This document shows, one piece after another, positions 40,402-44,982 of a stretch of DNA of 55,000 bases (the first letter of the stretch is position 1; each line of letters starts with the position of its first letter). The DNA is taken from assembly GCF_003334355.1 (NCBI RefSeq), contig NZ_QOWP01000026.1; one strand, given 5' to 3'. A program made the translations under genes and the position numbers. The notes beneath the pieces were generated by a model that was not told where the DNA came from, did no database searches, and worked only from the letters and a program-made list of their open reading frames with translations. The DNA is from Escherichia coli (GTDB lineage Bacteria; Pseudomonadota; Gammaproteobacteria; Enterobacterales; Enterobacteriaceae).

Positions 40402-41007
40402 ATGACGCTCTACCAGATAAAACCGCTCTTTCAGTCGCTGTTAAGGCCGACGATGTTTTGGCTTTACAAGCACCACGTTACAGCGAATCACATCACTCTT
40501 GCTGCACTGGCGCTTTCTCTTCTTACCGGATTGCTGTTGATGTTGGTGGCACAACCCATCCTCTTTATGCTATTGCCCATCGTGCTTTTTATCCGTATGG
40601 CGCTCAATGCGCTGGATGGCATGTTGGCGCGTGAGTGCAATCAGCAAACACGGCTTGGGGCAATTTTGAATGAGACTGGTGATGTTATTTCCGATATTGC
40701 GCTCTATTTAACATTTTTATTTTTACCGGAAAGTAACGCATCACTCGTGATACTCATGTTATTTTGCACCATATTGACCGAGTTTTGCGGTTTACTCGCG
40801 CAGACGATTAACGGTGTTCGCAGTTATGCCGGTCCATTTGGCAAAAGCGATCGCGCGTTAATATTTGGTCTGTGGGGTCTGGCCGTTGCCATTTATCCAC
40901 AGTGGATGCAGTGGAATAATCTTTTATGGAGCATTGCTTCAATTCTGCTTCTCTGGACTGCGATTAATCGTTGTCGAAGTGTGCTTCTTATGAGCGCTGA
41001 AATATAA
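40402..41007 (+). CDS. ynbA: CDP-alcohol phosphatidyltransferase family membrane protein
   Basis: Track ORF starts at a TTG; the likely start is the ATG at 40402 (MTLYQIKP...), 201 aa. Multi-pass membrane protein with a DG..AR...G...D...D-like signature (LDGMLARECNQQTRLGAILNETGDVISD). Confidence 0.85.
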   Translation: MTLYQIKPLFQSLLRPTMFWLYKHHVTANHITLAALALSLLTGLLLMLVAQPILFMLLPIVLFIRMALNALDGMLARECNQQTRLGAILNETGDVISDIALYLTFLFLPESNASLVILMLFCTILTEFCGLLAQTINGVRSYAGPFGKSDRALIFGLWGLAVAIYPQWMQWNNLLWSIASILLLWTAINRCRSVLLMSAEI

Positions 41008-41903
41008 TGCTGGAAAAATCTCTGGCAACACTTTTCGCGTTGTTAATTTTAGCAACGCTGATAAACCGTTTTCTGCTATGGCGGTTACCGGAGAGAAAAG
41101 GGGGTGAGGTTACATTACGTATTCGTACCTGGTGGGGCATCGTCATTTGTTTTTCAATGGTGATTTCAGGTCCACGCTGGATGACGTTGACGTTTTTTGC
41201 GCTGATAAGTTTTCTGGCATTGAAAGAATATTGTACGCTTATATCTGTACATTTTCCGCGTTGGTTATATTGGGGTATTCCTCTTAACTATTTGCTTATC
41301 GGTTTTAATTGCTTTGAGCTGTTTCTGTTATTTATACCTTTGGCTGGGTTTCTGATATTAGCCACCGGGCAAGTTTTAGTGGGTGACCCCTCTGGTTTTC
41401 TGCATACCGTGAGCGCCATTTTTTGGGGCTGGATAATGACCGTTTTCGCCTTGAGTCATGCCGCCTGGTTATTAATGTTGCCAACCACAAATATCCAGGG
41501 CGGGGCGTTACTGGTGTTATTTCTTTTGGCATTAACCGAGTCAAACGATATTGCACAGTATTTATGGGGAAAATCCTGCGGCAGAAGAAAAGTGGTCCCT
41601 AAAGTCAGCCCGGGAAAAACATTGGAAGGTCTGATGAGCGGCGTCATCACCATCATGATTGCGTCACTGATTATCGGACCGTTACTGACACCGCTAAATA
41701 CATTACAGGCATTATTAGCGGGTTTGTTAATTGGTATTAGTGGTTTTTGCAGCGATGTCGTGATGTCAGCCATCAAACGAGATATTGGTGTTAAAGATAG
41801 CGGAAAACTATTGCCAAGACATGGCGGACTCCTTGACAGGATTGACTCATTAATTTTCACCGCTCCGGTATTTTTTTATTTTATACGCTACTGCTGTTAC
41901 TGA
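41007..41903 (+). CDS. ynbB: CdsA-like phosphatidate cytidylyltransferase family membrane protein
   Basis: 298 aa polytopic membrane ORF with a C-terminal CdsA-type signature (SAIKRDIGVKDSGKLLPRHGGLLDRIDS); 1-nt stop/start overlap with ynbA (TAATG). Confidence 0.85.
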   Translation: MLEKSLATLFALLILATLINRFLLWRLPERKGGEVTLRIRTWWGIVICFSMVISGPRWMTLTFFALISFLALKEYCTLISVHFPRWLYWGIPLNYLLIGFNCFELFLLFIPLAGFLILATGQVLVGDPSGFLHTVSAIFWGWIMTVFALSHAAWLLMLPTTNIQGGALLVLFLLALTESNDIAQYLWGKSCGRRKVVPKVSPGKTLEGLMSGVITIMIASLIIGPLLTPLNTLQALLAGLLIGISGFCSDVVMSAIKRDIGVKDSGKLLPRHGGLLDRIDSLIFTAPVFFYFIRYCCY

Positions 41904-41918
41904 AGGAAAATAGAGAAA

Positions 41919-43676
41919 ATGGAAAATTCACGCATCCCTGGGGAACATTTTTTTACCACCAGTGATAATACAGCGTTGTTTTATCGGCACTGGCCCGCTT
42001 TACAGCCCGGGGCGAAAAAGGTCATCGTCTTATTTCATCGCGGGCATGAACATTCTGGTCGTCTACAACATCTCGTTGATGAACTGGCGATGCCAGATAC
42101 TGCTTTTTATGCCTGGGATGCCCGAGGGCATGGAAAAAGTTCGGGGCCGCGTGGTTATAGCCCATCTCTTGCGCGTTCAGTGCGGGATGTCGATGAATTT
42201 GTCCGTTTTGCTGCCAGCGACAGCCAGGTTGGACTGGAAGAGGTGGTAGTGATCGCGCAAAGCGTCGGCGCAGTGCTGGTTGCCACATGGATTCATGATT
42301 ATGCACCTGCAATTCGCGGGCTGGTGCTGGCTTCTCCGGCCTTTAAGGTTAAATTGTATGTGCCGCTGGCACGTCCTGCGCTGGCGTTATGGCATCGTCT
42401 GCGTGGTCTGTTTTTTATTAATTCCTATGTGAAAGGACGCTATTTGACCCACGATCGGCAACGGGGGGCGAGTTTCAATAATGATCCGCTGATCACACGG
42501 GCGATTGCCGTTAATATCTTGCTCGATCTCTACAAAACGTCTGAACGTATTATTAGAGATGCGGCGGCGATTACGCTCCCCACGCAACTTCTGATATCAG
42601 GCGATGACTATGTGGTGCATCGCCAACCGCAGATTGATTTTTATCAGAGATTACGTAGCCCTCTGAAAGAGCTGCATCTGCTGCCAGGCTTTTATCACGA
42701 CACGTTGGGTGAAGAGAACAGGGCGCTGGCATTTGAAAAAATGCAAAGCTTTATTAGTCGTTTATATGCTAACAAATCGCAAAAATTTGATTATCAGCAT
42801 GAAGACTGCACAGGACCATCAGCGGATCGATGGCGGCTACTTTCTGGTGGACCCGTGCCATTATCGCCGGTTGATTTAGCGTATCGCTTTATGCGAAAGG
42901 CGATGAAATTGTTCGGGACGCACTCTTCGGGCCTGCATCTCGGAATGAGCACCGGCTTTGATTCAGGCAGTTCGCTGGATTATGTCTATCAAAATCAACC
43001 GCAAGGTAGTAACGCATTCGGGCGTTTAGTCGACAAAATCTACCTGAACAGTGTTGGCTGGCGCGGTATTCGCCAGCGCAAAACCCATTTACAAATACTG
43101 ATTAAACAAGCCGTTGCCGATCTCCACGCCAAAGGTTTAGCCGTCCGCGTGGTTGAAATTGCCGCAGGGCATGGGCGCTATGTACTGGATGCGCTGGCAA
43201 ACGAGCCTGCCGTAAGCGATATTTTGTTACGTGATTACAGCGAGTTAAATGTTGCACAGGGGCAAGAGATGATTGCTCAACGGGGAATGTCTGGGCGGGT
43301 GCGTTTTGAACAGGGCGATGCGTTTAACCCGGAGGAACTCAGCGCGTTAACTCCGCGGCCTACGCTGGCGATTGTCTCTGGCCTGTATGAGCTTTTTCCC
43401 GAAAATGAGCAGGTAAAAAACTCACTCGCAGGTCTTGCCAATGCCATCGAACCGGGCGGCATTCTCATCTACACCGGGCAGCCGTGGCACCCTCAACTGG
43501 AGATGATTGCCGGGGTGTTAACCAGTCATAAAGATGGTAAACCGTGGGTAATGCGCGTGCGTTCGCAAGGGGAGATGGATTCACTCGTGCGTGATGCCGG
43601 ATTTGATAAATGCACACAACGGATTGATGAGTGGGGTATTTTTACGGTTTCGATGGCGGTGCGTCGTGATAACTGA
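41919..43676 (+). CDS. ynbC: Fusion protein: alpha/beta-hydrolase (lysophospholipase-like) N-domain plus SAM-methyltransferase-like C-domain
   Basis: 585 aa ORF. N-terminal HRGHEHSGR and nucleophile-elbow AQSVG motifs; the C-terminal half has a class I methyltransferase-like fold signature ([14 protein letters not shown]). Confidence 0.85.
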
Positions 43677-44982
43677 ACGTCGGAACGTATTGCTACAAGG
43701 CGCTGGCTGGTTATTGTTGCTGGCCCCGTTTTTCTTCTTCACCTATGGATCTCTTAATCAGTTCACCGCGGTTCAGGACCTTAACAGCCATGATATCCCC
43801 AGTCAGGTATTCGGTTGGGAAACGGCGATCCCTTTTCTTCCCTGGACTATTGTTCCTTACTGGAGTCTGGATCTTTTATATGGATTTTCGCTGTTCGTTT
43901 GTAGCACGACATTCGAACAGCGCCGACTTGTCCACCGGCTTATTCTGGCAACGGTAATGGCCTGCTGCGGTTTTTTGCTCTATCCGCTGAAGTTTAGTTT
44001 TATCCGTCCTGAAGTGAGTGGGGTGACGGGATGGCTATTTTCGCAACTTGAACTGTTTGATCTGCCTTATAACCAGTCTCCTTCGCTGCATATTATTCTC
44101 TGCTGGCTACTTTGGCGTCACTTTCATCAGCATCTGGCTGAGAGGTGGCGTAAAGTCTGCGGCGGATGGTTTTTACTCATCGCCATTTCGACGCTGACGA
44201 CCTGGCAGCATCATTTTATTGATGTCATCACAGGGCTGGCGGTAGGTATGTTGATTGACTGGATGGTGCCCGTCGACCGTCGTTGGAATTATCAGAAACC
44301 TGATCAACGTCGAATCAAAATAGCACTGCCCTATGTCGTAGGCGCGGGCTCGTGCATTGTATTGATGGAGCTAATGATGATGATTCAGTTATGGTGGTCA
44401 GTCTGGTTATGTTGGCCAGTATTATCGCTACTCATAATTGGCCGTGGGTACGGTGGGCTTGGCGCGATAACAACAGGGAAAGATAGTCAGGGGAAACTAC
44501 CGCCCGCCGTTTACTGGCTGACATTGCCCTGCCGCATCGGGATGTGGCTGTCTATGCGTTGGTTTTGTCGTCGCCTGGAGCCGGTGAGCAAAATGACTGC
44601 TGGTGTTTATTTAGGGGCGTTTCCACGACATATTCCGGCACAGAATGCGGTTCTGGACGTCACCTTTGAATTCCCTCGCGGACGAGCGACAAAAGATCGA
44701 CTCTATTTCTGTGTACCGATGCTGGATCTGGTGGTTCCGGAAGAGGGGGAGCTACGACAGGCCGTGGCGATGCTGGAAACATTACGCGAAGAGCAAGGCA
44801 GCGTTCTGGTCCATTGCGCATTGGGATTATCGCGCAGTGCGCTGGTAGTGGCGGCATGGCTGTTATGTTACGGACACTGTAAAACCGTTGATGAAGCGAT
44901 TAGCTTTATTCGAGCCAGACGCTCGCATATTGTGCTTAAGGAAGAGCACAAAGCGATGTTGAAATTATGGGAAAACAGGTAA
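43666..44982 (+). CDS. ynbD: Membrane-anchored dual-specificity (CX5R) phosphatase
   Basis: Several N-terminal transmembrane helices and a C-terminal catalytic motif [10 protein letters not shown]. Start set at the GTG overlapping the ynbC stop; an alternative start a few codons downstream is possible. Confidence 0.8.

Follow-up and report, generated by a model that had tools for sequence, protein, structure and literature searches.

Two published lines of work touch on ynbABCD, a four-gene operon on the plus strand at positions 40402-44982 of a 55,000-nucleotide stretch of Escherichia coli contig NZ_QOWP01000026.1 (RefSeq assembly GCF_003334355.1; the whole stretch is called the window below). 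One concerns its second gene product, YnbB, a published paralogue of the cytidine diphosphate (CDP)-diacylglycerol synthase CdsA. YnbB acts as a CDP-diacylglycerol synthase in vitro, its overproduction raises the amount of the glycolipid MPIase, and it has been described as a backup enzyme for MPIase synthesis; a cdsA knockout is rescued by YnbB and yeast Tam41 together, and YnbB in place of CdsA does not support bulk phospholipid synthesis (PMC6362211, PMC7018664). Expression of ynbB has also been reported to be cold-induced (PMC11413397).

The other line of work concerns antagonism resistance cluster 1 (arc1) of Pseudomonas aeruginosa, which spans PA2541-PA2536. Of its six genes, five have links to phospholipid metabolism, and Ting et al. 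read four as homologues of phosphatidylglycerol (PG) synthesis enzymes (PMC8926400; Ting et al. 2022, eLife). The cluster shows very low basal expression, is induced through Gac/Rsm, and is required to survive attack by the B. thailandensis type VI secretion system (T6SS), with transposon-sequencing effects of 8.6-fold for PA2541, 3.1-fold for PA2540, and 3.4-fold for PA2536 (PMC8926400). In a second study, full resistance to the T6SS lipases TseL and Tle1 likewise depended on arc1A (PMC12663445; Nat Commun 2025), and neither arc1 study names a lipid product (PMC8926400, PMC12663445). The mapping of letters to genes is ambiguous between sections of the first paper, in which arc1A-F corresponds to PA2541-36, yet the VSV-G-tagged PA2541 product is named Arc1F (PMC8926400).

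Set against these systems, ynbABCD is a reduced member of a module with partial biochemistry (YnbB) and, in its likely Pseudomonas counterpart, a published defence phenotype. We favour, with moderate confidence, the reading that it represents in E. coli a lipid module that is widespread and horizontally mobile, from which E. coli has lost two genes; the operon would provide an inducible side branch of phospholipid synthesis that probably serves under envelope attack. The first-pass annotation of the window had put the operon forward as a candidate undescribed system with no assigned product, which overstated its novelty, since the biochemistry of YnbB, the BglJ-RcsB promoter, and a likely arc1 counterpart have been published. 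Its view that the lipid product of the operon is unknown holds in the literature searched, where we found no paper treating ynbA, ynbC, ynbD, or the whole operon and where the term "ynbABCD" gave nothing. The genes were named by megablast against complete E. coli genomes together with RefSeq annotation, and the operon contains the following features:

40402-41007, plus strand: ynbA (RefSeq coordinates), a 201-aa membrane protein of the CDP-alcohol phosphatidyltransferase family
41007-41903, plus strand: ynbB, a 298-aa CdsA paralogue (CDP-diacylglycerol synthase)
41919-43676, plus strand: ynbC, with lipase-like and methyltransferase domains
42012-42716, plus strand: N-terminal domain of ynbC, a monoacylglycerol-lipase-like serine hydrolase (Pfam Hydrolase_4)
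42741-43664, plus strand: C-terminal domain of ynbC, a class I S-adenosylmethionine (SAM)-dependent methyltransferase (Pfam Methyltransf_20)
43666-44982, plus strand: ynbD (RefSeq start), a two-domain phosphatase
43942-44283, plus strand: N-terminal PAP2-like membrane domain of ynbD (Pfam PAP2 / PAP2_3, weak matches)
44605-44976, plus strand: C-terminal dual-specificity (CX5R) phosphatase domain of ynbD, predicted to be cytoplasmic (Pfam DSPc)

The four co-directional genes proposed earlier for this interval were confirmed as four plus-strand open reading frames (ORFs) corresponding to ynbA, ynbB, ynbC, and ynbD. Their description as overlapping applies to ynbA/ynbB (1 nt) and to ynbC/ynbD (11 nt with the RefSeq start), but not to ynbB and ynbC, which are separated by a gap of 15 nt. 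Each domain named at that stage was supported by Pfam for all four proteins; YnbD was rightly called a CX5R phosphatase, carrying a DSPc domain with this motif, but its N-terminal PAP2-like membrane domain had been overlooked.

Conservation of gene content was surveyed in the 80 best metagenome loci and a few genome loci; the ORFs of the metagenome loci were scored with iterated hidden Markov models. The YnbA family comprised 148 clusters at E ≤ 1e-30 among 1.84 billion representatives. Architectures were counted in the 27 loci from outside E. coli whose flanking sequence was long enough, and ynbA was adjoined by ynbB in 26, by a PlsC-like acyltransferase gene in 19, by ynbC in 19, and by ynbD in 15 of these, counts drawn from loci that are not phylogenetically independent (L055/L067 and L045/L065/L069/L083 are near-duplicates). 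With A-D standing for ynbA-ynbD, T for the PlsC-like acyltransferase, and s for a small membrane protein, the arrangements were as follows:

ABTCD: 10 of the 27 loci
ABTCDs: 2 of the 27 loci
ABT only: 7 of the 27 loci
ABC with patatin and short-chain dehydrogenase: 4 of the 27 loci
ABCD: 2 of the 27 loci
ABCDs, a degraded Vibrio copy: 1 of the 27 loci
A alone: 1 of the 27 loci

The full order is exemplified by Snodgrassella alvi, in which ynbA, ynbB, the PlsC-like acyltransferase gene, ynbC, ynbD, and a gene for a 135-aa membrane protein follow one another, and natural fusion proteins join YnbA to YnbC (P0193) and YnbA to the acyltransferase (P0195). The four E. coli genes do not make up the natural unit: the conserved module has five to six genes, two of which are absent from E. 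coli. Because the acyltransferase and the small membrane protein are these two, E. coli ynbABCD is best described as a reduced variant rather than a full member. The CDP-lipid pathway logic ascribed to the operon, in which a CdsA-like enzyme, a CDP-alcohol transferase, a phosphatase, and tailoring enzymes work together, is sound and gains from the conserved synteny and the natural fusions.

Two of these arrangements have further features. At L045 (11351-13146), L083 (10891-12686), and L011 (12365-14174), the acyltransferase and YnbD give way to a patatin-like phospholipase and a short-chain dehydrogenase. The ABT-only clusters are followed by a conserved multi-pass membrane protein (L056, 11810-12754; homologues in L008, L031, L047, L077, and L089), which, judged by eye, looks like the YqaA/DedA type.

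The link to arc1 runs through a contig of the P. syringae group (L090, containing a protein 90% identical to a named P. syringae protein), which carries the module in the order A-C-D-small-T-B. Over nearly their full lengths, the E. coli proteins share 46% (YnbA), 39% (YnbB), 57% (YnbC), and 42% (YnbD) identity with those of this cluster. In the PAO1 annotations, PA2536 is called a probable phosphatidate cytidylyltransferase and PA2540 a putative phospholipase, while PA2537 is described as homologous to acyltransferases. The codons left by the published in-frame deletion of PA2541 (ATG ATT TCC / CAG GCC TGA) match an M-I-S start and a Q-A end, which are features of many Pseudomonas YnbA homologues. 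Mapping the published deletion primers with mismatches onto related loci gave noise only.

Several observations point to mobility of the module. Homologues that share about 70% identity with E. coli YnbA were observed in bee-gut Betaproteobacteria (Snodgrassella), Orbaceae, and Vibrio (Vibrio fluvialis); because this identity is as high as that seen in other Enterobacterales genera, recent horizontal transfer is indicated. The Vibrio fluvialis copy adjoins a resolvase and has undergone an in-frame deletion running from ynbB into the acyltransferase gene. What is left is a 130-aa ORF (L004, 10606-10998) in which about the first 85 residues of YnbB are fused to the acyltransferase's C-terminal tail. 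The module is also plasmid-borne: all six module genes are present in a 19-kb record from Burkholderia ambifaria that bears a plasmid label, and a degraded copy lies on an E. coli conjugative IncF plasmid. In this second E. coli copy (L092, 3845-7973; IncFIA/IncFIC plasmid pFHI_NMBU_11_02), which shares about 75% identity with its chromosomal counterpart, ynbB, the acyltransferase gene, and ynbC are intact, while ynbA is cut to residues 1-159 and ynbD to its first 77 residues. On the chromosome, ynbABCD is common but not universal in E. coli; megablast located it in 4769 of 5426 complete genomes, with at least 80% of the locus present in 4276.

YnbA matched the Pfam family CDP-OH_P_transf (PF01066) at E=1e-9 over model positions 3-149 of 152, and fell under every NCBIfam equivalog cut-off tested. 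Its best NCBIfam matches were archaetidylinositol phosphate (AIP) synthase at 75.4 bits (cut-off 180) and phosphatidylinositol phosphate (PIP) synthase at 48.6 bits (cut-off 170), with the PgsA equivalog at 32.6 bits (cut-off 109), and among solved structures the nearest by sequence was the Mycobacterium tuberculosis PIP synthase. The AlphaFold2 (AF2) model of YnbA, with a predicted local distance difference test (pLDDT) score of 96.4, adopts the six-helix transmembrane fold of solved CDP-alcohol phosphatidyltransferases. Foldseek placed this model closest to PIP synthases, DIPPS, and AF2299, with template modelling (TM) scores of about 0.7 (0.66-0.77), and farther from phosphatidylglycerol phosphate (PGP) synthase, with a TM score of about 0.5. 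PIP synthases, DIPPS, and AF2299 use CDP-alcohol donors, and PIP synthases and DIPPS act on phosphorylated acceptors.

Alignment with PgsA1 gave the YnbA motif N69-x2-D72-G-x2-A-R-x8-G86-x3-N90-x3-D94, which departs from the canonical four-aspartate signature D1xxD2GxxARx8GxxxD3xxxD4 in having Asn at D1 and D3. In the CDP-alcohol phosphatidyltransferase family, D1-D3 are metal ion ligands and D4 is the catalytic base, so Asn at D1 and D3 implies an altered metal site. The N/D/N/D pattern was present in 102 of the 114 YnbA-family representatives (50% clustering) with a readable motif. In an alignment of 63 sequences, whose members are 36-54% identical to E. coli YnbA, N69 and N90 were at least 90% conserved, and D72, D94, D98, R140, K148, D150, R151, and R190 were invariant; at the positions of R140, K148, and R151, M. 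tuberculosis PgsA1 also has Arg. Our literature search found no paper describing the Asn-for-Asp change in YnbA, and the N/D/N/D motif of the family is a previously unreported feature. We also considered whether YnbA is an inactive pseudo-enzyme and rejected this, as sequences only 36-54% identical to the E. coli protein show no change in the variant motif or at 17 further positions.

YnbB matched Pfam CTP_transf_1 (PF01148) over nearly its full length (residues 37-295, E=4e-65), and its C-terminal signature (SPxKTxEG, KRDxGxKD, and GHGGxxDRxDS) was conserved in 40 homologues. The NCBIfam CdsA equivalog (NF008635) aligned only with residues 160-291, at 102 bits against a cut-off of 385. A rival reading of the operon is a dedicated MPIase pathway in which YnbB, possibly with YnbA, makes GlcNAc-PP-diacylglycerol (GlcNAc, N-acetylglucosamine), the first MPIase intermediate. 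Such a pathway would fit the rise in MPIase on YnbB overproduction and the joint rescue of the cdsA knockout with Tam41 (PMC6362211, PMC7018664), as well as the reported cold induction of ynbB and cdsA along with MPIase (PMC11413397), and the loss of two acidic residues from YnbA could in principle suit a phosphate nucleophile such as GlcNAc-1-P. However, ynbB deletion leaves MPIase unchanged, CdsA alone being enough; ynbA, ynbC, and ynbD are never mentioned in the MPIase papers; and the module is without a glycosyltransferase. Moreover, conservation of the module extends to Pseudomonas, Snodgrassella, Burkholderia, rhizobia, and Bacteroidota-like contigs, although the glycan of MPIase is similar to enterobacterial common antigen, and the acyltransferase, lipase-methyltransferase, and phosphatases would be left unexplained. 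We regard a dedicated MPIase pathway as quite improbable.

YnbC combines two well-matched domains. Its N-terminal part matched Pfam Hydrolase_4 (residues 32-266, E=1.5e-67) and, among sequences in the Protein Data Bank (PDB), the monoglyceride lipases of M. tuberculosis and human (E=9e-15); the triad of Ser115 (in the AQS115VG elbow), Asp230, and His260 was invariant or conserved among homologues. The C-terminal part matched Pfam Methyltransf_20 (PF12147; residues 275-582, E=7.5e-152), retains the conserved, glycine-rich SAM motif DIAAGHGRY, and was modelled by AF2 with a pLDDT of 94.2. At E=1e-10 to 1e-12, Foldseek matched this model to many SAM methyltransferases acting on small molecules (O-, C-, and N-methyltransferases), the top match being 3ocj, a Bordetella protein without known function. 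Because only generic small-molecule methyltransferases and this function-less protein were matched, no substrate is proposed for the YnbC methyltransferase. A literature search on Methyltransf_20 (PF12147) found nothing.

The C-terminal domain of YnbD matched Pfam DSPc (E=1.4e-26), with the CX5R motif formed by C384-ALGLS-R390 within HCALGLSRS; the Cys, Gly, Arg, and Ser were conserved in 21 homologues. Its PDB sequence matches were dual-specificity phosphatases, including the lipid phosphatase PTPMT1, which acts on PGP (3rgo, E=2.5e-4). The N-terminus gave weak Pfam matches to PAP2 (E=7.8e-5) and PAP2_3 (E=6e-4) and contains the PAP2-like motifs K109-FSFI-RP, P139-SLH, and H182-HFID. Compared with the PAP2 motifs KX6RP, PSGH, and SRX5HX3D, the second (PSLH) and the HX3D part of the third are present, with PSxH and HxxxD conserved in at least 95% of 20 homologues, while the first reads KX4RP, its Arg not being conserved, and the third has Thr in place of Arg. 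Hydropathy and the positive-inside rule, in a topology that hinges on one weak helix, would put the PAP2-like motifs on the periplasmic side of the membrane and make the CX5R domain cytoplasmic.

Taken as a pathway, these proteins suggest the following sequence of reactions. YnbB converts phosphatidate and CTP to CDP-diacylglycerol, the step shown in vitro by others. YnbA, as a PIP-synthase-like enzyme with an Asn/Asp/Asn/Asp site, may then put the phosphatidyl group on a common phosphorylated alcohol; transfer to an acceptor of this kind is suggested by the structural neighbours, the invariant basic cluster, and the lack of a linked head-group gene. As no head-group biosynthesis gene recurs in the flanks of the surveyed module loci, the acceptor should be a common metabolite, and the simplest candidate would be glycerol-3-phosphate. 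Inositol-phosphate was thought an unlikely acceptor, since an inositol-phosphate synthase is not linked to the module, and E. coli is not known to possess an inositol-1-phosphate synthase. The cytoplasmic CX5R domain of YnbD could remove the terminal phosphate, as PTPMT1 does on PGP, and its periplasm-facing PAP2-like domain could act on phosphate or pyrophosphate lipids of the outer leaflet. Finally, YnbC may deacylate a lyso- or mono-acyl lipid and methylate either a product or the head group. By homology with arc1, ynbABCD probably serves to remodel or repair the membrane when the envelope is attacked, and not for bulk lipid synthesis.

Alternatively, the operon might simply be a redundant route to ordinary PG, with YnbA as a second PGP synthase, YnbD as a second PGP phosphatase, and no new lipid. 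This accords with the reading of four arc1 genes as PG-synthesis homologues by Ting et al. (PMC8926400), with glycerol-3-phosphate being the most widely available acceptor, with the lack of a linked head-group gene, and with the precedent of PTPMT1 as a CX5R PGP phosphatase. It sits poorly with the score of YnbA on the PgsA equivalog, below the cut-off, and with a structure nearer to PIP synthases than to PgsA; plain PG would call for neither the family-wide Asn, nor the lipase-methyltransferase fusion, nor dedicated paralogues of CdsA and PlsC. We therefore consider plain PG synthesis rather unlikely. At the opposite end, it is conceivable, although we would put it forward only tentatively, that the YnbA family is a separate N/D/N/D clade of CDP-alcohol phosphotransferases, that the module builds a novel, perhaps methylated or pyrophosphate-linked phospholipid deployed under danger against lipase toxins, and that the E. 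coli version is reduced but working.

Regulation and selection of the E. coli copy were also considered. The ynbA promoter has a BglJ-RcsB site centred 65-68 bases upstream of where transcription starts, mutation of which abolishes activation, and the BglJ-RcsB regulon is described by its authors as largely H-NS-repressed (PMC3950696). Against three diverged Escherichia-type contigs, the ratio of nonsynonymous to synonymous substitution rates (dN/dS) was 0.14-0.34 for the ynb genes and, in full-length comparisons with the same contigs, 0.00-0.05 for azoR and hrpA. From this difference, selection on ynb is purifying but relaxed, as expected for a rarely expressed accessory operon.

These data bear on whether the locus is instead a silenced, slowly decaying remnant of horizontal acquisition with no current function in E. 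coli. Decay of this kind would be in keeping with the missing acyltransferase and small gene, the low GC content of ynbA and ynbB (0.43-0.46), a promoter belonging to a largely H-NS-repressed regulon, absence of the locus from 12% of complete genomes and its partial state in about 9% more, dN/dS values at least 4-fold and usually more than 10-fold above those of azoR and hrpA (full-length comparisons), and the visibly degraded plasmid and Vibrio copies. Nevertheless, the four ORFs are intact in E. coli, as is each catalytic motif, dN/dS is well under 1, at least 80% of the locus is kept in 79% of genomes, YnbB is active when expressed, and the promoter has kept a specific activator site. A functionless remnant is thus very unlikely in our judgement.

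The favoured reading of ynbABCD as an inducible module for envelope attack has several points to contend with. No lipid product has been seen in any organism, and deletion of ynbB produces no lipid or MPIase phenotype in E. coli (PMC6362211, PMC7018664). Two canonical aspartates out of four are missing from YnbA, which may therefore not follow textbook chemistry, and the YnbC methyltransferase and the YnbD PAP2-like domain are without an assigned substrate, Foldseek having given no hint of one for the methyltransferase. E. coli has four of the six module genes, the acyltransferase and small gene leaving no remnant anywhere in the window. Lastly, the identification of the Pseudomonas cluster as PA2541-36 has support but falls short of proof, as it was made through annotations, gene number and order, and terminal codons rather than a full alignment with PAO1.

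The operon is flanked by ydbD (DUF2773) upstream and by azoR and hrpA downstream, and the upstream features are as follows:

37919-40231: ydbD (DUF2773), a 770-aa ORF directly upstream of the ynbA region, with an N-terminal signal-like sequence
40232-40401, plus strand: ydbD-ynbA intergenic region, a 170-nt gap with the ynbA promoter

The lowest GC content of the region (0.39-0.45) was observed in ydbD, which is truncated by an IS1 element in the best-matching strain. Downstream, where ynbD and azoR converge and their stop codons lie 50 nt apart, the gap contains a perfect 8-bp inverted repeat at 44995-45015 (GTGGACTG / CAGTCCAC, with a 5-nt loop), which is probably a terminator hairpin shared by the two genes. 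A consensus scan for promoters and terminators missed this hairpin because no T-run follows it; the scan returned fewer sites than in shuffled controls, and its result was not used.

These observations indicate that E. coli K-12 carries a complete-looking lipid pathway with a product nobody has seen. The family-wide loss of two metal-binding aspartates suggests that the chemistry of YnbA is unlike that of textbook CDP-alcohol transferases, and the arc1-type link joins the E. coli literature on MPIase and YnbB to that on T6SS defence in Pseudomonas. The field gains a tractable host, a defined minimal gene set, concrete assays for the lipid, and YnbA point mutants worth testing.

Compared with known systems, the ynb-type module follows the same reaction order and uses the same enzyme superfamilies as the housekeeping PlsC-CdsA-PgsA-PgpA/B/C pathway and mitochondrial PTPMT1, the latter providing the precedent for a CX5R phosphatase acting on PGP. 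However, the Ynb proteins are divergent paralogues, YnbB is no substitute for CdsA in bulk lipid synthesis, and the lipase-methyltransferase fusion and two-domain phosphatase are absent from the housekeeping pathway. The PIP synthase and PIP phosphatase route (mycobacterial PgsA1, archaeal AIP synthase, and DIPPS) provides the best sequence and fold matches of YnbA and the same two-step logic of transfer onto a phosphorylated alcohol followed by dephosphorylation, whereas YnbA lies under the equivalog cut-offs, has Asn at D1 and D3, and has no linked inositol-phosphate synthase. MPIase (GlcNAc-PP-diacylglycerol) biosynthesis by CdsA and YnbB involves the same protein, YnbB, and the same CDP-diacylglycerol intermediate, but that work treated ynbB alone and leaves its operon partners and the spread of the module beyond Enterobacterales unaccounted for.

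The arc1 cluster differs from the E. coli operon in having a PlsC-like acyltransferase and a small membrane protein, in its gene order (A-C-D-s-T-B rather than A-B-C-D), and in its mapped activator, which is Gac/Rsm for arc1 and BglJ-RcsB for ynb. T6SS protection has been shown for P. aeruginosa arc1 only. Nevertheless, the two operons draw on the same protein families (a CDP-alcohol transferase, a lipase-methyltransferase, a PAP2/DSP phosphatase, and a CdsA paralogue), and both loci combine very low basal expression with activation by envelope or danger signalling.

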